A DNA stretch of 64,000 nt from Chlamydiales bacterium (GTDB taxonomy: Bacteria; Chlamydiota; Chlamydiia; Chlamydiales; SM23-39), in assembly GCA_035480535.1 (NCBI GenBank), contig DATIHQ010000001.1, positions 2,814-66,813 of the forward strand. Direction: 5' to 3'. Each line of letters opens with the position of its first letter. The first letter of the stretch is position 1. Under the pieces are notes generated by a model. The model saw only the letters and a program-made list of their open reading frames with translations, was not told the DNA's origin and did not search any database. This document shows positions 5,816 through 52,276 of this stretch, one piece after another. A program made the translations under genes and the position numbers.

Positions 5816-7375
5816 TTAAGATGCGGCGATTGTGTAGCGGCTTTGGGGGGAGGGGCTCGACTGGGATTGATGGAAATGGAACCCGCCAATCGCATTGATT
5901 TGAACGCCGCTGAGATGAGGTTTACAAAGAAAAGCGTGGTTGTAGTGATAGATAGGAGCCAAGGGCATATCGTCGAGAAAGAGCGATTCGGCTTGGGTAA
6001 GAATTTTCTTTCGTTCAACGGGGTTGGCTTCGCAGGATGAAAGATTTAGGAGTTCATTGAAGCGGGGGTTTTCATAGCCAGGTAAGTTTTTGGGAAGAGA
6101 GCGGCTTTTAAACCTCTCGAAAATACTCATCGGGTCGTTAAATTGGGCCAGCCAATAGGCAAGACCCAAGCTATATTTGCCTTTATTAAATCTCTGGATA
6201 AAAGAGTTATAATCGCAGCTTTCCAGCCGCACCTTGAATCCAAGAACTCGTTTCCATTGTTCTTGCAAAGTATCCACAATTTTTCTGTTCAAGGGACTGG
6301 AAACAAAGGTGAGGGTCAAGTTATTTAAGAATAATCGGATCGCTAAGTCGGGATCTCCTTCCTCTTCAAGCTCTTGAAGACCCTCATTCAGATGTTTTCT
6401 GGCCAAATTCTCATCAAATCCAGGGAAAAGAGGCGTGTTTTCATTTTGAGTGAGGGTGGGTGGAAGGCAGCGAGTAGCCGGAATCTCATTTAGGCGAGTC
6501 ACTTGCTCAACAATGAAGTGGCGGTCGATCGCATAGGAAAAGGCTTTTCGAATATTTTGGTTATGGAAGGGATATTGATGGGTATTAAAAGAGCAAAATA
6601 CAGTTCCTCCCATTGGGAAAAATTTCAATATTCCCTCTTGGGCGTAAGGGTTGAGCGATTCAAGAGGAAGCGAACAGAGGATGACGGAAACAAGGTCCAG
6701 CTCATCTTGATCAAAGAGTTGTAAAACAGAGTGGGGATTATTGATGATGCTGATATGAATCGAATCCAAAGTTACATTTTTGGCATCCCAATAGAGAGGA
6801 TTCTTCTCACAAATGATCTCACATTTGGGTTTCCATTTGGCAATTTTGAAGGCTCCGCTGGTCACGAGTTCATGGACAGGGGCGTTTTCCCACTGTCCAT
6901 TTTTCGTTTCGATGTGTTTGGGAATCGGACAAAAATTACAAAATGAAAGGAGGACAAGAAAATAAGAGGTAGGGTGATGAAGCTCGATCTCCAAGGTCGT
7001 ATCGTCGAGGGCACGGATGCCCACTTCATCGAGAGGAACCAATCCCGAAGAGGCCGCCTCCGCATTTTTGATGGGAAAAAAAAGCTGGGGGGAAAGACAG
7101 GGGAATTTCGGGTCTAAGCCTTTCAACCAAGAGTAGGCAAAATCATGCGCTGTCAGAGGATGTCCATCGCTCCAATAGGCTTCTCTTAAATGGAATCGAT
7201 AGGTTTTTTGATCTGGGGAAATCTCGACCGATTCGGCCAAAGCCAGTTCGGGCTCTCCATTGGGTTTGAGCCTTGTGAGAGCATCATAGATCAAAGAAAG
7301 AAAGGTGGAGGTGATTTGGTCTCCATTCTTTCGAGGATCGATCGTTAGGGGGTCGATGCTAAAACAGGTACGCAT
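5816..7375 (-). CDS. OppA-like family 5 SBP paralog without signal peptide or lipobox (possibly decaying)
   Basis: It aligns with its neighbours from MRTCFSIDPLTIDPRK onward. An in-frame TAG lies 8 codons upstream of the ATG, and only 73 bp separate it from the upstream gene. Confidence 0.7.
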   Translation of the reverse strand: MRTCFSIDPLTIDPRKNGDQITSTFLSLIYDALTRLKPNGEPELALAESVEISPDQKTYRFHLREAYWSDGHPLTAHDFAYSWLKGLDPKFPCLSPQLFFPIKNAEAASSGLVPLDEVGIRALDDTTLEIELHHPTSYFLVLLSFCNFCPIPKHIETKNGQWENAPVHELVTSGAFKIAKWKPKCEIICEKNPLYWDAKNVTLDSIHISIINNPHSVLQLFDQDELDLVSVILCSLPLESLNPYAQEGILKFFPMGGTVFCSFNTHQYPFHNQNIRKAFSYAIDRHFIVEQVTRLNEIPATRCLPPTLTQNENTPLFPGFDENLARKHLNEGLQELEEEGDPDLAIRLFLNNLTLTFVSSPLNRKIVDTLQEQWKRVLGFKVRLESCDYNSFIQRFNKGKYSLGLAYWLAQFNDPMSIFERFKSRSLPKNLPGYENPRFNELLNLSSCEANPVERKKILTQAESLFLDDMPLAPIYHYNHAFLCKPHLSGVQINAIGGFHFHQSQSSPSPQSRYTIAAS

Positions 7376-9865: not shown

Positions 9866-9872
9866 TTAAATT

Positions 9873-9957
9873 GCACGGATGACAGGATAGTCAGGATAAG
9901 GAAAGAAAATTATATTTTTTATCCTGTCCATCCTGTCATCCGTGCTAATTTTTTTTA
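9873..9957. terminator. long hairpin plus T-run between convergent genes (putative bidirectional terminator)
   Basis: Perfect 16-bp arms GCACGGATGACAGGAT (9873-9888) and ATCCTGTCATCCGTGC (9930-9945), inner pairing CAGGAT/ATCCTG, followed by TAATTTTTTTTATT. Confidence 0.6.
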
Positions 9958-11060: not shown

Positions 11061-12260
11061 TCAAGAGGAAATTTTTTGTGGTTTGAAACCAATGAAGGCA
11101 AGAAGGAAGGCAATGGCCGCCAGAAAATAAAAAAGGCCCGCAGAGCCGAGGAAACTCATCGCAACGGGGGCCATGAGAGGCCCAGCAATGGCGCCCATTC
11201 CATAAGAGAGAACAAAACCGCCTGTTGCGGCAATGATTTGATTCTCCTGCACCTTCTCGCAAGTGTAGGCCATGCTGAGAGGATAAAGAGTGAAAGAAAA
11301 TCCCCCAAAACACCAGGCAAGCGGGAAGAGAAGGAGGGGAGAGAGCTGTTCCATTTGGGCAATCGCGAGGCCAAAAAGAGCGGTGAGTAAACTCATAATA
11401 TTCAAAACGCGTCTTCGATTTCCTTTGTCAGCCCAATGTCCAATCGGCCACTGCAGACTCAATCCTCCGAAGATGAGAATGGCCATAAAAGTTCCCACTT
11501 CTGAAATGGTCATTCCATTTTCTCGAGCATAGATAGGGGCAAGCCCATAGATGACCGCGAGGAGCATGCCAGAAATGATGCCTCCCATAAATCCAAGGGG
11601 AGAAATCCGGAAAAGTTGAAAGAGGTTGAGCTGAACTGGTTCCGAGACCGGTTTAGGTTGCGGCAATTTCATGAGCGTCACGGGCAGGATGGAAAGAGCG
11701 GAAAGAAACGCTGTGATGAAGAAAGGGTAAATTCCTTTGGGATCAGAGAGATTAATGAGAAATTGACCGAGTGAAAGGGCTCCATAAAAAACAGCCAAGT
11801 AAACGGAGAGAATTTTTCCCCGCATATTGGCGGGGCTTTGGATCAGAAGCCAGCTCTCAATGACGATGAAGATCCCCGCTGTGCAGATGCCGCCGATAAA
11901 GCGAAGAAAACTCCAAAACCAGGGATTCACCCAAATTGCCTGGAGTAGGACGACGAGGGTGATCAGAATCGCAAAAATAACAAAAGAACGGGCATGTCCC
12001 TGTTTTGAGATCAATTGATCGATCCGGAGAGAACCCACTAAAATTCCCAAATAAAGGGCTGAAATGACGATCCCAATGACCTCTGGAGAATGCCCTTCAA
12101 GTTCTAAGCGGATGGATACAAAGGTGTTAAAGAGACCGCTTGCTAAAATGAGAAGGGCCAGACTGAAGAGAGGGGCGAAGAGGGAGCGAATCAGGGCAAG
12201 CATGTCGGGCCTCACCTTTATGGTGGCTGAATAGGCCATTTTTCTAGTACAAAAATCCAT
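11061..12260 (-). CDS. MFS transporter
   Basis: About 12 hydrophobic segments and a 399-aa MFS-like 6+6 layout. The exact start is uncertain (three Met in the first 20 aa). Confidence 0.8.
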   Translation of the reverse strand: MDFCTRKMAYSATIKVRPDMLALIRSLFAPLFSLALLILASGLFNTFVSIRLELEGHSPEVIGIVISALYLGILVGSLRIDQLISKQGHARSFVIFAILITLVVLLQAIWVNPWFWSFLRFIGGICTAGIFIVIESWLLIQSPANMRGKILSVYLAVFYGALSLGQFLINLSDPKGIYPFFITAFLSALSILPVTLMKLPQPKPVSEPVQLNLFQLFRISPLGFMGGIISGMLLAVIYGLAPIYARENGMTISEVGTFMAILIFGGLSLQWPIGHWADKGNRRRVLNIMSLLTALFGLAIAQMEQLSPLLLFPLAWCFGGFSFTLYPLSMAYTCEKVQENQIIAATGGFVLSYGMGAIAGPLMAPVAMSFLGSAGLFYFLAAIAFLLAFIGFKPQKISS

Positions 12261-12362: not shown

Positions 12363-14552
12363 ATGATTCCAAAGGTAAAAGAATTAATTGGCGTTCAGGA
12401 CGCGATGGATAACCTCGCAGCCATCGTGGGGATCAACATGGAGAATCCCCCTCCGATTGGAATCATTAAAAAGCACCGGATCGTTACGGATGAAGAGGAA
12501 TTTGGCCCTCAAAATGTGCAATGGCTCAGCGCTGAGGGGAGCGAATCGATTTTAGATATTTTGGACGCCACCTATCGATCGATTCACAATCATCTTCTGA
12601 CCCTCTATGAAAATCCCGAAATGAATTGGGACAATGAAAAAACCCGGAAGGGGATCGCCGCCATGATGTCTCTTGTCGGTGAATCAGCTCAAAAGATCGA
12701 AACCTATCTCATCTATCGCCTCGGAAGACCTCTCGCAACAAAAATTGCCGATCGGGATGAATTCAAAGCGCTCCAGTATTTCTATACGCAGCGATTCGTG
12801 AAGAAGTTCAAGCAAGGCGTAGAGGGAGAAGAGGCTTGGAAAGAAGAATGGGAAGAGAATGAAGAGGCCGCTTCACTGGATGTTTCTAAGACAGGTTTAA
12901 AGGATTTTGAAACGGTGCGCCGCGATCAGGAATATGAGCTTTTCTACATCCGCAATGAAGAGGGAAAATCCTATTTCAATGCAGAGCTCTTAAGAAACAT
13001 TAAATTGACCTGTGATTTTGAAGCGGAAGGGGAAGAATTTGAAGAAGATCCTCTCTTGAAAGTGCGCGCCATGCAAGATCGCGACGTTCTCGGCTCTGCA
13101 GGACAAATCTTGGGAGAGTGTCATTCAGCGATAGTCGATTTTTATAAGATCTTTCAGAAGCTTCCTGAAAACGAATTGGCCCACTCTCTGAGTTTGTCGC
13201 TTCTCGCCCTATTTCTAGCGGCCAATCCTCGTCATCTTTTGCAAAACACCAATGGAAAAAGCTGCCTCCAATATTTTGATGATTTCCATCGCTATTTACG
13301 CCGCACCATGAAAACTTCCGAATATCAAAAAATGATCGCCTATCCCCCAGATAAAGGGGATAAAACAGCCTATTTCCTCCTCTACCTCACTCATTCGCTT
13401 TCCCGCGCCCTTTTCTATCGAACAGGTGGGATCAGACAAGAGTCAATCGGCCTGATCCATCGCACCATGCGAAGAGGGGAGGAGATCAAGCAAAAAGGGA
13501 AAGAAAAGCTGTTGAAAGGGGAGACGATTTGGAATCAATTTCTTCTCGACGATGAAAAATTGCGCACGCTGCTCAATCAATTTCCCAATGGGCCTCTCTT
13601 TAAAATCCTCGATCTGATCCGAGAGGAGCAAGATGAAGATACGATCATCCCCTTCGATCCCATTGGACAAGGCAATTTGCCCAGCCGTATTTTTGAGATC
13701 AATTACCGCGACCATAAAATCGACGTCCTCCGCATTCCCTCTCCCATGCGCCAATCCTATATCCACAAAGTGGAAATCCTCGATGAATTCCGTGGACTTC
13801 TCCGCTCCTATGCCATCGATCAGACGCCTAAAAGACACCTCATGGTCAATTTACACGATCGCACTTCCTGGAAAGAATACGCCCGCAGCCGCGCCCTGGA
13901 AGAGCTCCATAAAAATGCGGAATTCACACAGCAAATCATCACCATCACCCTACCCAAGGCAACCGACTTTTACTATCAGAACAATGAATATCTAAATATG
14001 AACAGCGCCGAAGATTTCATCCTCGCCTTCAGAGCGCAGCTAGCCGCTCCGCAAGAGTGTGGCTTTTTCCTCCCCATTTCTCCCAAAGAACTGATCCACT
14101 TCACGGAAGGCGCCCTTCCCCTCATCCACGAACATTTTTTCCATCACAAAAACAGCCTGACGCGCCGCAACCGAGAAGATTTCATCGAGATCTTCTACCA
14201 ATTCCTCATCCTCAAGTGCATCGATCTTCTCCACCCCCACTCTCTCAGTTTTACCTGTAAAGATGCCATTGACACAGGCGCAGCGGAGCAGGCGACGTTC
14301 TATGGATTTATGCAGCTTCTTACATCTAATTTTTCTCAGAAAGAGGAGCAAGATTTTCTTCGCTGGCAGCTCTACACGCCGGCTCTTTTCATTCGGGAAA
14401 GAGCGATCGACTCAGAGCGGCTCAACCGCGCCATCTCTGCCCTCGAGCGCCTCGATGGCGAAATGGCTGAGAGAGGGAAAGTGATTCTTAAGGCATTTGG
14501 CGACTTCTATCATCCCCAAACGTTCAAGACACTTGGCGTGAAACATCTCTAA
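12363..14552 (+). CDS. hypothetical protein, 729 aa, soluble, acidic patches
   Basis: Long ORF behind a ~100-bp almost pure A/T leader. I recognised no family. Confidence 0.65.
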   Translation: MIPKVKELIGVQDAMDNLAAIVGINMENPPPIGIIKKHRIVTDEEEFGPQNVQWLSAEGSESILDILDATYRSIHNHLLTLYENPEMNWDNEKTRKGIAAMMSLVGESAQKIETYLIYRLGRPLATKIADRDEFKALQYFYTQRFVKKFKQGVEGEEAWKEEWEENEEAASLDVSKTGLKDFETVRRDQEYELFYIRNEEGKSYFNAELLRNIKLTCDFEAEGEEFEEDPLLKVRAMQDRDVLGSAGQILGECHSAIVDFYKIFQKLPENELAHSLSLSLLALFLAANPRHLLQNTNGKSCLQYFDDFHRYLRRTMKTSEYQKMIAYPPDKGDKTAYFLLYLTHSLSRALFYRTGGIRQESIGLIHRTMRRGEEIKQKGKEKLLKGETIWNQFLLDDEKLRTLLNQFPNGPLFKILDLIREEQDEDTIIPFDPIGQGNLPSRIFEINYRDHKIDVLRIPSPMRQSYIHKVEILDEFRGLLRSYAIDQTPKRHLMVNLHDRTSWKEYARSRALEELHKNAEFTQQIITITLPKATDFYYQNNEYLNMNSAEDFILAFRAQLAAPQECGFFLPISPKELIHFTEGALPLIHEHFFHHKNSLTRRNREDFIEIFYQFLILKCIDLLHPHSLSFTCKDAIDTGAAEQATFYGFMQLLTSNFSQKEEQDFLRWQLYTPALFIRERAIDSERLNRAISALERLDGEMAERGKVILKAFGDFYHPQTFKTLGVKHL

Positions 14553-14570
14553 TTCATAAGTCGATTACGA

Positions 14571-14794
14571 GCTTAGGATCTGAGCCGTAATGCGAATATC
14601 AGCGCAGAGGCGCGAGACGCGCGAAGAGAGTTAGCCGCAGAGGACGAGAGGTGAGGGAAGCCCTCACACACCCAGAAAAGATATAAAATTTGGGAGTATG
14701 AGGGCATCCCTCATCTCTGCGTTCTCCGCGGTTATCTCAGTGCTTTTCTCCGCGCTGATATTCGCATTACGGTTTCGATCCCAAGCCTGTCTGA
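14571..14794. repeat. R2 palindromic element, copy A
   Basis: Termini CCGTAATGCGAATATCAGCGC (14585-) and GCGCTGATATTCGCATTACGG (-14772). The whole element folds on itself. It lies between convergent CDS. Confidence 0.9.
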
Positions 14795-14820: not shown

Positions 14821-15318
14821 TTAGCTATTTAAGAGTCTGTGTTGTTCTTTTGTGAGGAGAGGGGGAAGGATAGGAGCTCTGGTTTCTCCCGGATAAGGGT
14901 ATTGAGCGTACAATTCACTAAAGGTCTCTTCATCCATGAGAGGAGGACGGCTTGTCCATACCGATCTGATTGCAAAATAGGGGTCGGTATCCAATAGTTT
15001 TTGCTTGGCTGCCTTAAAATCTGCTGCTGCATTTGTCAGATTGGCGATTCGCTGGGTTTGTTGAGTGGCGGCCGTTTTCTCGGCTTCGTCAGATTCTTTG
15101 ATTGCATCCAGCAACTTTTGATCTTCTTTAAAAGCTGCTTTGGAATCGCGTCGGATTTGGATGACTTGTTTCACACTCCAAACGAAAGCAACGGTCAGGG
15201 TCGCTAGGGCAACGAAGGGAGCGTAGGTCGCGAAGAGGGAGGGCGCGACTGGAGCAGGGGTAGGGGATGAGAACCAATTGATACTATCTAATAGACGTGA
15301 GGCAATTGAGCTAAACAT
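14821..15318 (-). CDS. hypothetical membrane protein, 165 aa (single ~22-aa hydrophobic segment)
   Basis: ORF with an upstream TATAATATT box. Hydrophobic stretch LFATYAPFVALATLTVAFVW. Confidence 0.5.
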   Translation of the reverse strand: MFSSIASRLLDSINWFSSPTPAPVAPSLFATYAPFVALATLTVAFVWSVKQVIQIRRDSKAAFKEDQKLLDAIKESDEAEKTAATQQTQRIANLTNAAADFKAAKQKLLDTDPYFAIRSVWTSRPPLMDEETFSELYAQYPYPGETRAPILPPLLTKEQHRLLNS

Positions 15319-17366: not shown

Positions 17367-18154
17367 CCGTATTTGAGTTCCTGATGGATCATATTCAGGG
17401 CCATTGTCAAGAGGAAATCGGCGACAATAATTAAAATATAACTGGTGACGACGCTCTGCGTGGTCGCGCGCCCAACGCCCGCCGCTCCACCCGTCGTTTT
17501 CATTCCTTTATAGCAACAGACAGTGACGAGTAAAACGCCGAAGACAAATGCCTTGATCACTCCCGATGCGACATCAAACAAATTGATGTGGGCTTGCATC
17601 GGATTGAAGTAGGTGGTGGGGGAGAGGTGAAACAAATAGACGGCGATTAAATAGCCTCCAAAAATTCCCATCATCGTGCTGAAAAGAGTCAGCAGCGGCA
17701 TCATCACAATCCCAGCGAAAAAGCGGGGCGCGATCAGATAGGAATTGGGGTTAATTGCCATCGATTTCAATGCATCGATCTGCTCGGTGACTTTCATCGT
17801 TCCCAGCTCAGCGCACATCGAAGAGCCCACTCTCCCAGTTACCATCAATGCGGTCAACACCGGGCCCAGCTCGGTGATCATCGATTTTCCCACCAGCGCG
17901 CCCGTGACTCCAGCCAGCCCTTTCTCACCCAGCTGATAAAAAGACTGGGCGGCCAGCACAAAGCCCGTCGTAAAGCCAGTGATCGCCACAACGCCCACCG
18001 ACATCACGCCGATGTGATACAATTGCTCGCGAAGCAATGCCCACGCCGGCGGCCGTCTCACCGCCGCGCCAAAGACATCGATGATGAGCGAAACATATTC
18101 CCCCACCATCGCTAAAATCCGAACCGAGTGCTTCCTAACGAGAACGAACATCAC
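17351..18154 (-). CDS. mlaE: ABC transporter permease (MlaE-like)
   Basis: 267-aa polytopic protein directly upstream of and overlapping mlaF, the typical MlaE position and size. Confidence 0.85.
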   Translation of the reverse strand: MMFVLVRKHSVRILAMVGEYVSLIIDVFGAAVRRPPAWALLREQLYHIGVMSVGVVAITGFTTGFVLAAQSFYQLGEKGLAGVTGALVGKSMITELGPVLTALMVTGRVGSSMCAELGTMKVTEQIDALKSMAINPNSYLIAPRFFAGIVMMPLLTLFSTMMGIFGGYLIAVYLFHLSPTTYFNPMQAHINLFDVASGVIKAFVFGVLLVTVCCYKGMKTTGGAAGVGRATTQSVVTSYILIIVADFLLTMALNMIHQELKYGWMKA

Positions 18155-21272: not shown

Positions 21273-21447
21273 AACTTCCTCCTTTCACTCATGCCGCTCG
21301 TGTGGGCGCATCTCTACTATAGAATTCCCAGAATAATGGCGCCAGACGAGCAATTATTTTAATCTTAGCCCTTATAAGAACAGGACTTAAGAGGGAAGGA
21401 TGCTAAGGAATCAAAGAATTTACATCAAGAAATCTTCCATTTGATAT

Positions 21448-21608
21448 ATACACAAATTGCTTCAAAAATCGGTTTTGTGCTGCGTCGGCTTTGCCTCATA
21501 TTTCTTGTCCTCGCTTCGGACCGTGCTTCTAGCACGGCCTCTCGCTCCGGCCAAGAAATCTGAGGAGCCTCCTTGCCCAATTCCCGATTTTTGAATCAAC
21601 TTGTGTAT
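21448..21608. repeat. R3-related palindromic element (TIR ATACACAAnTTGnTTCAAAAATCGG)
   Basis: ATACACAAATTGCTTCAAAAATCGG (21448-) versus CCCGATTTTTGAATCAACTTGTGTAT (-21608), centre GTGCTTCTAGCAC. It shares TGATTCAAAAATCG with the R3 termini. Confidence 0.75.
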
Positions 21609-22719
21609 GGTTCAAAAAATGAATGAATTGCGCGATCTTCTCCCTGGAATTAAGGATTGGAACTACTTTAACTACGCTGCTGCAGGCCCGCTGTTAAAGC
21701 CTTCTTCCGATTTACTCAAAGAAAGAGCAGAGCAAAATCTTTCTCCGCCGTCCCTTTATCGTGAAAGTTGGCTCAGACAAATCGAAGAAACAAGGGCAAC
21801 TTGCGCTGAATTCATCGGAGCTGCGCCAGAGGAGATTGCCTTTGTCACCAACACGGGCGCGGGGCTGAATCTCGTCGCCAATGCGATTCACTGGAAGGCA
21901 GGGGATCGGATCCTTTTTCCAGAAGATGAATTTCCTACAAATCGCATCGTTTGGGAGAATTTAGCCGTCAAAGGCGTGTCTCCCGAAGCGATTCCGGTTG
22001 ATTCCAAACGCTCTTTTGCCGATCAGCTGGCCGCCATGGATCTAACAAGAGTGCGCCTGATTGCTGTATCTGCCATTTCTTATTGCGATGGAAGGGCGCA
22101 TGAGCTGGGAAAGATCTCCCAACTCTGCAAGAAGATCAACGCCTACTTTTCCATCGATGCGATTCAAGCTTTGGGGACGATGGAGTTTGATCTGCGCAAG
22201 ACTCCGTGTGATTTTCTCTCGACAGCCAGCCGCAAATGGCTCTTTGGCCCTCTCGGCGCTGGGTTTCTCTACATTAAGCGATCGCGCCTTCCCGAGCTTT
22301 TCGTTTCCAATGCTGGCTGGATGAGCGTGAAAAATGAGGCCAAAGCCCAGTGGGAATTTATCGATGGCGCCAAGCGCTTTGAATCGGGGCTTCTCTATCC
22401 CCCTGCGATCCATGCGATGGGGAAATCGATCCAGACTCTAAAAGCCTTTGGTTGGCCGCGGATCTTTCAAAGGATTGAGAAACTCCACAGCCATTTAAAA
22501 CATGAATTACAGGCAATGGGCCACACGCCCTATCGCCCCGATGCCAAACATGGCATTCTCGTCCTAAAAATGGATGACAAGGCAGGCCCCTTTGCCACAA
22601 AATGCGCCGAGCACAAACTCCTCCTCACCGAGAGGAAAGGCCTCGTCCGGATCTCGTTGCACGCGACGACTCTAGACAAAGAAATCGAGCTTCTTCTCCA
22701 GCTCCTCAAGAAAAATTAG
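21607..22719 (+). CDS. class V aminotransferase (cysteine desulfurase / selenocysteine lyase-like)
   Basis: YFNYAAAGP, FSIDAIQALG and SRKWLFGPLGAGFLY (PLP-Lys region). The start is ATG 21607 or 21619; the track start 21601 is a TTG. Confidence 0.8.
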   Translation: MVQKMNELRDLLPGIKDWNYFNYAAAGPLLKPSSDLLKERAEQNLSPPSLYRESWLRQIEETRATCAEFIGAAPEEIAFVTNTGAGLNLVANAIHWKAGDRILFPEDEFPTNRIVWENLAVKGVSPEAIPVDSKRSFADQLAAMDLTRVRLIAVSAISYCDGRAHELGKISQLCKKINAYFSIDAIQALGTMEFDLRKTPCDFLSTASRKWLFGPLGAGFLYIKRSRLPELFVSNAGWMSVKNEAKAQWEFIDGAKRFESGLLYPPAIHAMGKSIQTLKAFGWPRIFQRIEKLHSHLKHELQAMGHTPYRPDAKHGILVLKMDDKAGPFATKCAEHKLLLTERKGLVRISLHATTLDKEIELLLQLLKKN

Positions 22720-23682: not shown

Positions 23683-23970
23683 ATGAACCAAGAACTGAAG
23701 ATTTTTGCGATAAAGTTTCTCGGGATGCTCCTCGCTGCCCCCATTGTTGGATGGGGCATAATGATCTGCGCTGAGAAGTGTGAGAAATCCTGGAAAACAA
23801 ATAATCGGAGAAAAAAATGGTTGGCTTCATGTGGGTTATTCTTATTACTGGCCACCGTGGAGTTTGGGGGCCGCGGGGGGCGAAGCCGCCCGACGGTTTG
23901 TTGGGGGTGCGGGGGCGCCAGCCCCGACACTTTCAGATCTCATAATTCAGATTTCAGATTTAGTAATTGA
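23683..23970 (+). CDS. possible small membrane protein (95 aa) whose C-terminal third is R1-repeat encoded
   Basis: GAGGTGA SD 3 nt before ATG 23683. Hydrophobic segment FAIKFLGMLLAAPIVGWGIMI. From about codon 62 the sequence is the R1 repeat. Confidence 0.35.
   Translation: MNQELKIFAIKFLGMLLAAPIVGWGIMICAEKCEKSWKTNNRRKKWLASCGLFLLLATVEFGGRGGRSRPTVCWGCGGASPDTFRSHNSDFRFSN
23866..23961 (+). repeat. R1 dispersed repeat, full two-hairpin unit
   Basis: GGGGGCCGCGGGGGGCGAAGCCGCCCGACGGTTTGTTGGGGGTGCGGGGGCGCCAGCCCCGACACTTTCAGATCTCATAATTCAGATTTCAGATTT. It abuts the tamB stop. Confidence 0.85.
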
Positions 23971-47401: not shown

Positions 47402-47788
47402 TTAGTTGGCTTTTGTTTTCTTAGAGACTGAGGTGAAGATAGCGACTAATTCTTCGGCTTCTTTATATAGGGAGGATAGGCGGTTTTTGGGGATGAGTTT
47501 TGTGTCCATCAGCAGTTCTAACCAATAGAGAGATTCGTCAAGTTCCTGGAGGGTTAGATCTAGTTTAGCTACAAACTCCGCTTTTGACCGCCCTCTATAA
47601 GCCTCTCGTAGGTGGGCTCCAGCAGAAGTGCCGCTTCTAAGCAGCTGTTTTCCAATCATCCCGGCGGCCATTGTCTTGGGTAAATGGGTATATAAATTAA
47701 CGACTCTAATAGCAAATTTTTTAGTACGATCCCTTAAATCCCCCTTAACGGGGTGCGGGGGCGAAGCCCCGACGTTTTCAGATTTCAT
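47402..47788 (-). CDS. four-helix-bundle protein (23S rRNA intervening-sequence protein family, TIGR02436/PF05635-like)
   Basis: DLRDRTKKFAIRVVNLYTHLPKT..GKQLLRSGTSAGAHLREAYRGRSKAEFVAKL..ELDESLYWLELL. The start codon and first ~14 codons lie in R1. Confidence 0.75.
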   Translation of the reverse strand: MKSENVGASPPHPVKGDLRDRTKKFAIRVVNLYTHLPKTMAAGMIGKQLLRSGTSAGAHLREAYRGRSKAEFVAKLDLTLQELDESLYWLELLMDTKLIPKNRLSSLYKEAEELVAIFTSVSKKTKAN

Positions 47789-47973
47789 AATTCAGACTTC
47801 AGATTTTCCCCATGGGGTGCGGGGGCGAAGCCCCGACGTTTTCAGATTTCATAATTCAGACTTCAGATTTTCCCCATGGGGTGCGGGGGCGAAGCCCCGA
47901 CGTTTTCAGATTTCATAATTCAGACTTCAGATTTCCCTCTGGGGTGGATTTCATAATTCAGATTTCAGATTTT
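47750..47973 (+). repeat. R1 tandem array: three 64-bp units (47750, 47814, 47878) plus a core-deleted fourth unit
   Basis: GGGGTGCGGGGGCGAAGCCCCGACGTTTTCAGATTTCATAATTCAGACTTCAGATTTTCCCCAT is repeated head to tail. The last unit is GGGGTGGATTTCATAATTCAGATTTCAGATTTT. Confidence 0.95.
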
Positions 47974-48529
47974 AATACCCGTGAGAAGTCCCGCAGCCGC
48001 AGGCGGATTTCACATTGGGGTTGGTGATTTTGAAACCGGCGCCTTGGAGGCCGTCGAGATAGTCGATGACGCAGCCCATGAGGCGGTCAGCTGATTTATG
48101 ATGGAGGTGGATTTGGATGCCGCTGGACTCGAGAACGAGGTCGCCCGGCTTCGCCTTCTCTGAATAGTCAAGGAAATATTCGAATCCGCTGCAGCCCGCC
48201 GCTCGCTCGCCAAAACGGAGGCTCCAGCCAGTCTTGCCTTCTTCCGCGAGAATGTTGAGGAATTTTGCAGCCGCTTTGGGGGTGATGGTAATGGTGGTGA
48301 GGTCTTCTTGCTCTGCAAGGACTTTATTGAGGTTGTTCAGGAGCTTGGTGAGGTCCTCTTCCGTCATGCCATGGCCCAGCATTCCGGCTTCGATCGTCTC
48401 CCAAGTGGAGGCGCTGCAGCCGACGCAATGGAGCCCCATGTTAGTCATTTCTTGAGCCAGCTTTTGGCTCTTGTGAGGGAATCGTTTAAAAATTTCTTCG
48501 ATCGTCATGTCGCGGGTGATTTGTGCCAT
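47972..48529 (-). CDS. fusion of a DUF1858 (hybrid-cluster-protein-associated redox disulfide) domain with a HesB/IscA-type Fe-S assembly domain
   Basis: N-terminus: TIEEIFKRFP..GLHCVGCSAS.WETIEAG. C-terminus: GCSGFEY...FKITNPNVKSACGCGTSHGY. Confidence 0.75.
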   Translation of the reverse strand: MAQITRDMTIEEIFKRFPHKSQKLAQEMTNMGLHCVGCSASTWETIEAGMLGHGMTEEDLTKLLNNLNKVLAEQEDLTTITITPKAAAKFLNILAEEGKTGWSLRFGERAAGCSGFEYFLDYSEKAKPGDLVLESSGIQIHLHHKSADRLMGCVIDYLDGLQGAGFKITNPNVKSACGCGTSHGY

Positions 48530-52217: not shown

Positions 52218-52245
52218 TTCATTATCCTTCTAGGAAAGTGAATCC

Positions 52246-52276
52246 AAAAGGCCCTTTTTTAAGGGCCTTTTTTATT
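52246..52276. terminator. bidirectional rho-independent terminator
   Basis: AAAAGGCCC TTTTTTAA GGGCCTTTT followed by TTATT, between convergent CDS 49053..52217 and adk. Confidence 0.7.

Follow-up and report, generated by a model that had tools for sequence, protein, structure and literature searches.

R2, a family of long palindromic repeats beside the genes of an uncultured environmental chlamydia

The four copies of R2 and their neighbouring genes

The window analysed here is a whole 64-kb stretch of contig DATIHQ010000001.1, and direct reading of its sequence revealed four copies of a palindromic element, designated R2. Judged by its GatB and FabI, the window belongs to an uncultured environmental member of the Chlamydiota. 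Copy A (14567-14794), a full-length imperfect palindrome, lies between a 729-aa gene on the plus strand, whose stop codon (14550-14552) is 15 nt to its left, and a 165-aa gene on the minus strand, whose stop codon (14821-14823) is 27 nt to its right. Copy B (35196-35420) begins 3 nt after a 390-aa gene on the plus strand and has fabI, on the minus strand, at its right. Copy C (39997-40210) is placed between the FKBP gene (plus strand, stop 39964-39966, gap of 30 nt) and a HemN-like radical-SAM gene (minus strand, stop 40213-40215, gap of about 3 nt). Copy D (59339-59590), whose central loop is longer than those of A, B and C, is 4 nt from the gatB stop codon (59595-59597, minus strand) on one side and lies upstream of an ankyrin gene on the other. 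The open reading frame (ORF) and domain calls agree with an earlier note on this DNA, which had put three copies between convergent genes and the fourth between the gatB stop and the ankyrin gene. Copy D directly adjoins position 59338, where the ankyrin ORF has its first ATG, but translation more plausibly starts near 59273, at an ATG with AAGGAG ahead of it.

The copies are 214-252 bp long, and their two ends are inverted versions of one terminus. With up to three mismatches, the 19-mer GTAATGCGAATATCAGCGC has exactly eight matches in the window, which form four inverted pairs (14587/14752, 35216/35378, 40017/40172 and 59359/59553), against a chance expectation of 0.02 matches in shuffled sequence. 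The left terminus of copy D differs from this 19-mer at two positions. A profile hidden Markov model built from the eight arms detected no further copy or solo arm across the window beyond those eight. The number of copies and the shared terminus with its reverse complement at the other end were therefore as the earlier note had described them, but the boundaries it gave (14571-14794, 35201-35420, 40012-40202 and 59358-59579) have to be moved outward.

The palindrome extends about 22 nt outward of CGTAATGCG in all four copies, with more divergence in C and D. This outer arm reads roughly ACGGGCTTAGGATCnnnnCCG, and the alignment of the eight ends gave a consensus close to ACGGGCTTAGGATC-nnnn-CCG. 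It is clear in A and B, and is diverged yet still mirrored in C (CAGTCC...) and D (ACGGGCTTATAACC / ACGGCTCATCACC). According to a repeat-family search and the eight-arm alignment, the terminal arms common to the four copies are about 48 nt long. The left terminal arm of A (14567-14610, plus strand) is composed of the outer arm ACGAGCTTAGGATCTGAGCC followed by GTAATGCGAATATCAGCGCAGAGG, and the equivalent arms are at 14748-14794, 35196-35239, 35374-35420, 39997-40040, 40168-40210, 59339-59382 and 59549-59590. The box ATCAGCGCAGAGG of the terminal arm is also present in elements of other genomes.

The stretch GATCCyAAGCCTGTCTGA had been taken for a flank shared by A and B. Our analysis showed that it is in fact the right outer arm of the element; on the left, A and B both carry the reverse complement of this stretch at their ends. 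It does encode the last residues and the stop codon of fabI in copy B, as had been noticed: fabI (ORF 35407..36339, minus strand; Pfam enoyl-ACP reductase match) ends in ATC AGA CAG GCT TAG (I R Q A *; 35407-35421, minus strand) within the outer right arm of B. Because this arm belongs to the element, the fabI stop and the last 4-5 codons lie inside the copy. At its right end, A has the same bases as non-coding sequence. An IRQA ending was seen in none of 120 FabI homologues, whose C-terminal part beyond ...HAMGLAVDS is hypervariable, and the idea that the gene captured its end from the element thus survives this comparison. With 310 aa, FabI has the commonest length among its relatives, which suggests that the element replaced a few codons rather than added them. 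None of the other copies runs into a flanking stop codon, though each ends close to one.

Each copy was folded as RNA and compared with dinucleotide shuffles, which gave about -70 to -78 kcal/mol. Copy A folds as one long imperfect hairpin of -145.2 kcal/mol (z -16.8), and the hairpins of B, C and D have -153 (z -15.5), -123 (z -11.6) and -149 kcal/mol (z -14.2), respectively; no shuffle matched any copy. Each whole element is thus a single long hairpin with sub-hairpins, and A, C and D share their internal sequence, both as first described. Identity among these three copies is about 88%, and flipping a copy makes the alignment worse. The copies have a polarity, because the sub-hairpin GCGCGAGACGCGC (14610-14622 in A, plus strand) occurs in the left arm alone, as seen by aligning arm against arm. 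Another sub-hairpin of the A/C/D core, GTGAGGGAAGCCCTCAC (14651-14667, plus strand), is mirrored in the right arm.

Copy B has the same termini of about 48 nt as the other three, where the earlier note had allowed it only about 35 bp, and a different core. Beyond the box ATCAGCGCAGAGG its interior has no significant similarity to A, C and D (z 0-2.8), while the two arms of its own core match each other (z 7-9). The core is therefore self-complementary and unlike that of A, C and D, as had been stated, but it is not a sequence without relatives, since it belongs to a family with many copies elsewhere.

In all copies a CGCAGAG-type 8-mer occurs about three times per arm. The element is built in three layers: a species-specific outer arm, the box ATCAGCGCAGAG(G) followed by the CGCAGAG-type 8-mers, and an inner module with one G+C-rich sub-hairpin per arm. 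There are at least two inner modules, the A/C/D type GAGGTGAGGG..CCCTCAC and the B type GGGACCCTGCCCGGAG, and each is joined to other ends in other genomes. The longest stop-free stretch within the copies is 48-71 aa, without any protein-family signal. No match to Rfam 15 was obtained at the gathering thresholds, and the hits with E<1 were only generic miRNA-precursor hairpins far below threshold. The motif GGTTTCGATCC was considered as a remnant of a tRNA T-arm and dropped, as ARAGORN detected no tRNA. The two outer arms within one copy are not significantly more similar to each other than expected (a value at least as high arose in 5440 of 20000 random pairings), and hence there is no signal of arm-to-arm conversion.

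Related palindromes and their turnover

A strain 99.2-99.8% identical to the window is represented by the metagenome-assembled genome (MAG) GCA_964548615.1 and by the Logan assemblies of SRR9179560, SRR9179561 and SRR9179563. The MAG contig breaks inside copy D and the Logan contigs break inside A and B. Such breaks in short-read assemblies fit repeated or strongly self-complementary sequence, and they give no copy count. The exact 22-nt terminus TAATRCGAATATCAGCGCRGAG had no match in 185,579 GTDB species-representative genomes and none in the JGI metagenomes, which indicates that the terminus is specific to this lineage. Paired-box patterns found nothing in IMG/VR, and a BLAST search of copies A and B against the PLSDB plasmids gave no match. 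A census by means of the spurious encoded peptide ...SALIFALRLRS, used as an alignment query, returned nothing at E<=10.

Long palindromes of a similar sort, also at gene ends, came to light when related loci were searched for inverted repeats. Purine 8-mers of the same kind (CGCAGAG, CGCAAAG and CACAGAG) make up their arms, and CCACAGAG is a related motif. One of them, at 17420-17710 of locus L002, shares the 25-nt exact stretch CTCTCTAACTCCGGGCAGGGTCCCG with the core of B (z 16.8), and its ends are quite different. When species-representative genomes were scanned with a 20-mer of the B core, nine loci were found, all in MAG SZAS-17 (JAFEGL01). The B-type family therefore comprises at least nine loci in SZAS-17 (L009-L017) and two metagenome contigs, L002 and, from the metagenome scan, L019. 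We treat SZAS-17 as chlamydia-like, its Verrucomicrobia label being probably wrong in view of the at least nine copies of a chlamydial repeat; the best GatB matches that carry a name are likewise chlamydial. In the B-type relatives the box ATCAGCGCAGAG(G/A) is found exactly, as an inverted pair 177-245 nt apart.

We then aligned 11 elements from four organisms for an analysis of boxes and compensatory changes. The near-invariant blocks are ATCAGCGCAGAG, CGCAGAG and GGGnCCCTGCCCGGAG together with their mirror images, and the sequence between them varies. In 16 of the 62 predicted base pairs both partners have changed and still pair. The CCGGGCAGGG box is likewise kept from one species to another, and the outer ends beyond ATCAGCGC differ among organisms.

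The B core sits within different outer ends in L002, SZAS-17 and L019, and in SZAS-17 an element combines two different end types and has a partly conserved central loop. As for the core of C, 30 nt of the right inner arm match a palindrome at the orthologous HemN/FKBP junction of L018 (z 9.7), to which the cores of A and D are only weakly similar (z 2.0 and 3.3). The sharing of the B core, and of part of the C core, by elements with different ends indicates that termini and cores are separable modules. Termini and cores thus reassort, and what the earlier note called a swapped core in B is better seen as module reassortment in a wider superfamily.

Some of the related elements have further parts. 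In SZAS-17 a G+C-rich CCGCC...GGCGG hairpin stands beside the long end in four loci. At 2578-2920 of L017 and 2113-2530 of L019, a complete element lies inside or beside a partial end (extra ATCAG... and ...GCGCTGAT fragments), an arrangement that suggests nested insertion or internal replacement. The hairpin GGGGTGCGGGG...CCCCGC of the L018 element weakly resembles (z about 2-3.5) the core hairpin of a separate repeat family of the window.

Our analysis also showed that elements related to R2 come and go, as far as the compared sequences tell, at orthologous junctions between species. No palindrome was found after gatB in L002, whose GatB is 86% identical. The fabI junction measures 107 bp in one JGI relative. 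In L018, an 89%-identical relative, it is a 49-bp spacer (6925-6973) with TTTCATCAGCGCAGGG, a solo remnant of the conserved end box of the element. The DUF6268 gene has different palindromes downstream of it in L002 and L004 and a 36-bp spacer in the 99% strain. In L004 (GatB 83%) a run of N (11483-11582) starts 13 nt after the gatB stop, with about 850 bp of uncalled sequence between it and the next called gene, and this gap may hide a repeat.

Other repeats of the window were recorded in the course of this work. A second repeat family, composed of AAATCTGAAATCTGAATTATGAAATCTGAAA and the hairpin GGGGTGCGGGGGCGAAGCCCCGAC, is found at 1845-2100, 23905-23970, 41925-41964, 47316-47390 and 47750-47981, in one place as a palindrome of 255 bp whose 26-nt ends are perfect, and in another as a tandem array of three 64-nt units. 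Hairpins similar to its own are at the core of palindromes in L002 and L018. Units of this family lie on both sides of a gene for a 23S rRNA intervening-sequence protein (PF05635, 47402-47788). A 175-bp element with 25-nt inverted ends (ATACCGCTCGTGATTCAAAAATCG...) is located in a divergent promoter region at 41967-42141, and related inverted repeats are at 21440-21616 and 31024-31273. The 99.8%-identical MAG contig lacks it and has CCCCTT-GTC-CCCCTGG at this site, apparently a polymorphism due to recent insertion or excision, which suggests that such elements recently moved or were lost here. An unrelated palindrome of 83 bp (9868-9950), with arms of 32 nt and 88% complementarity, occupies the convergent junction 9835/9955. 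The region 31782-32711, inside the ORF 31726-32982, contains 15-nt-periodic direct repeats in the form of 18 overlapping copies of a 132-nt unit with 61-73% identity, which probably encode a repetitive protein.

Possible origins of R2

We consider that R2 is probably a lineage-specific family of non-coding fold-back repeats of the kind of miniature inverted-repeat transposable elements (MITEs) or REPINs, within a wider, modular superfamily of that clade. This is favoured by the small size, the non-coding nature and the dispersal of the copies, by their long inverted ends, by the boxes shared across genera, by the turnover between species and by the overwritten end of fabI. In addition, the invariant boxes are conserved in sequence and not only in structure, which fits recognition by a cognate protein. 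The earlier note had offered either a MITE family or a terminator or RNA-stability module. Our results fit the MITE-like option better and leave the terminator weak as a primary explanation, but two defining features of MITEs, a target-site duplication and an autonomous partner or transposase, were not found in the sequence examined.

If R2 is such a family, its spread would depend on a trans-acting enzyme that recognises the conserved boxes, either as duplex or as hairpin. The repeated CGCAGAGG motifs could be sites of recombination that creates new combinations of modules, or these could come about through nested insertion, and copies would persist mainly in short spacers downstream of genes, where insertions may be tolerated. 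Where it is transcribed, the stem of about 100 bp in a 3′ untranslated region could block 3′ exonucleases, act as a substrate of RNase III and impede convergent read-through. We regard any such effect on RNA 3′ ends as a probable side effect or occasional co-option, and not as the reason for the family.

Several points weigh against the mobile-repeat interpretation. There is no consistent target-site duplication at any copy. At the four copies, whose exact ends are uncertain, A and C have no direct repeat of at least 4 nt at matching offsets, D has only T-runs, and B has one 6-mer, CTACAC, with an estimated random chance of about 0.1 per copy. On this point R2 would not count as a MITE in the strict sense, and its size and the absence of an end tag place it outside REP/REPIN. 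No transposase is found among the genes of the 64-kb window, nor any transposase-bearing element with the same terminal inverted repeats (TIRs), such as the earlier note had envisaged, and about 160 kb of related loci contain no inverted pair of boxes 1-2 kb apart. All four sites are filled in MAG GCA_964548615.1 (L001, L005 and L020), so that no insertion polymorphism of R2 itself was seen within the species, and at about 88% identity between copies any spread was not recent. The full-length palindromy of both core types exceeds the needs of a transposase that binds the ends. Finally, selection for a function at gene ends would also yield an enrichment at convergent junctions.

Two further observations concern insertion sites and recombination. 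A palindromic target ATCAGCGCTGAT with duplication of GCGC was tried and rejected, as no empty target was present in 227 kb of sequence. A tyrosine recombinase gene is located at 57292-58161, and by eye the terminus agrees with the XerC/D dif site at about 6 of 9 bases.

The placement of the copies is one reason for thinking of a selected RNA module instead, in which the hairpins are retained to terminate or insulate convergent transcription and to stabilise mRNA 3′ ends, and in which the repetition results from duplication or co-option of a cassette. Three of the four copies are at convergent junctions, which make up 10 of the 51 junctions of the window (p ~0.02), and all but one of the eight gene ends beside the copies are 3′ ends. 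A long palindrome or inverted-repeat element is present at seven of the eight non-overlapping convergent junctions, and the eighth (52217/52381) has a classical bidirectional intrinsic terminator at 52243-52275 (AAAAGGCCCTTTTTTAAGGGCCTTTTTT). The stems are very stable on both strands, compensatory changes maintain their pairing, and the right arm of B has an intrinsic-terminator-like site (35319-35344, plus strand) with CCGGGCAGGGTCCCGG followed by CTTTTTTT, a canonical hairpin with T7, while the CCGGGCAGGG box is kept across species. That site, however, is the sole canonical hairpin with a T-run among the four copies: in A, C and D no stem is followed by a U-tract on either strand, though the terminator at 52243-52275 is a textbook one, which indicates that this organism uses ordinary terminators. 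Nor does the strand with the more stable fold always coincide with the transcribed one: for copy D it is the plus strand, by about 9 kcal/mol, and both neighbouring genes are on the minus strand. Strand-specific G-U wobble, looked for as a sign of selection on RNA, showed no consistent strand bias. Homologous copies in SZAS-17 also occur at tandem junctions and at one divergent junction, as far as crude ORF calling tells, and orthologous junctions in relatives have no element or different ones. Moreover, a hairpin as such needs no invariant sequence boxes. We hold selection for an RNA function to be an unlikely explanation of the family.

The full-length palindromy and the missing target-site duplication would both be explained if R2 were REPIN/RAYT-like or derived from IS200/IS605, that is, if it were moved as single-stranded DNA by an HUH tyrosine transposase that recognises the folded hairpin. 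The whole element is indeed a hairpin with sub-hairpins, and its persistence across genera with conserved boxes and lineage variants resembles that of the vertically inherited REPIN-RAYT systems (PMC3116915; bioRxiv 10.1101/2021.07.10.451892). But with 210-250 bp R2 is far longer than a REP of about 20-40 bp or a REPIN of about 100 bp (PMC3733652), the eight aligned ends have no GTAG or CGTC tag, and no Y1 transposase gene is found among the genes of the window, so that this origin seems improbable to us. Less probable still is that the copies are structural or protein-binding sites at the DNA level (cruciforms, or CGCAGAG arrays for a nucleoid, recombination or regulatory protein), or small-RNA genes. 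The CGCAGAG-type 8-mers repeated in each arm, the kin motifs (CGCAAAG, CACAGAG and CCACAGAG) in the palindromes of relatives and the invariance of the boxes across genera would suit binding sites. No sigma-70-like promoter was found in or beside any copy, however, and there is no Rfam family, no consistent orientation of the copies relative to genes and no conservation of their positions between species.

A more far-reaching proposal may be added to the preferred reading of R2 as a MITE/REPIN-kind repeat family. In a chlamydia-wide superfamily, the boxes ATCAGCGCAGAG, CGCAGAG and CCCTGCCCGGAG might be the sites of a dedicated, vertically inherited enzyme, much as in REPIN-RAYT systems; modules would then be exchanged by insertion at the hairpin tip (nested insertion) or by CGCAGAGG recombination, and the hosts, obligate intracellular bacteria, would repeatedly recruit copies as insulators where gene ends converge. 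We put this forward as a speculative and rather doubtful extension.

R2 and known repeat systems

Chlamydiae are usually regarded as repeat-poor. The present window shows that in at least one environmental chlamydia the majority of the convergent gene junctions are occupied by long palindromic repeats, which belong to several families. One of these families extends over more than one genus, its sequence boxes being conserved. The elements interrupt the short-read assemblies of these organisms, and they affect annotation by rewriting gene 3′ ends, as in fabI, and by generating spurious small ORFs. Elements of the R2 type would suit strain typing and would offer a handle on the mobilising enzyme. 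If the hairpins shape mRNA 3′ ends, they would also be relevant to gene expression in organisms in which genetics is hard. No description of MITE-like or REP-like families in Chlamydiae was found in the papers searched.

MITEs are non-coding elements of 70-300 bp with TIRs of 15-30 bp, located in intergenic regions beside genes; those that form hairpins are co-transcribed, and the RNA stems can stabilise or destabilise mRNA (PMC3733652). R2 is similar in size, TIRs, non-coding nature and dispersed intergenic position to Correia/NEMIS of Neisseria, ERIC/IRU and YPAL of enterobacteria, and RUP of pneumococcus (PMC3733652). It differs from them in being palindromic over its whole length and not in the TIRs only, in having no TA or other target-site duplication that we could find, and in having no known cognate insertion sequence. 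R2 is not known to have sequence similarity to any of these families, the BLAST search having covered plasmids.

REPs are imperfect palindromes of 20-40 bp tagged with GTAG or CGTC, which occur singly or as inverted pairs (PMC3733652). REP, BIME and REPIN elements resemble R2 as extragenic hairpin palindromes that are lineage-specific, persist for long and lack target-site duplication, and BIMEs have a mosaic, modular build as R2 does (PMC2817692, PMC3116915). However, R2 is several-fold longer and is without the GTAG or CGTC tag, and no RAYT gene was seen in the window. The BOX elements of Streptococcus pneumoniae are like R2 in consisting of interchangeable modules (boxA, boxB and boxC), in being intergenic and in having a stable secondary structure, but they are not palindromic over their full length, and R2 is made of modules with other sequences. 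Rickettsia palindromic elements share with R2 the palindromic structure, the obligate intracellular host and the ability to join coding sequence (PMC3733652). They insert in frame inside ORFs, whereas R2 overwrites only the last 4-5 codons of one gene and is otherwise intergenic. Most likely, R2 is a small, non-coding mobile repeat with interchangeable modules; repeats of this sort are ordinary in bacteria but had so far not been described from the group considered here.

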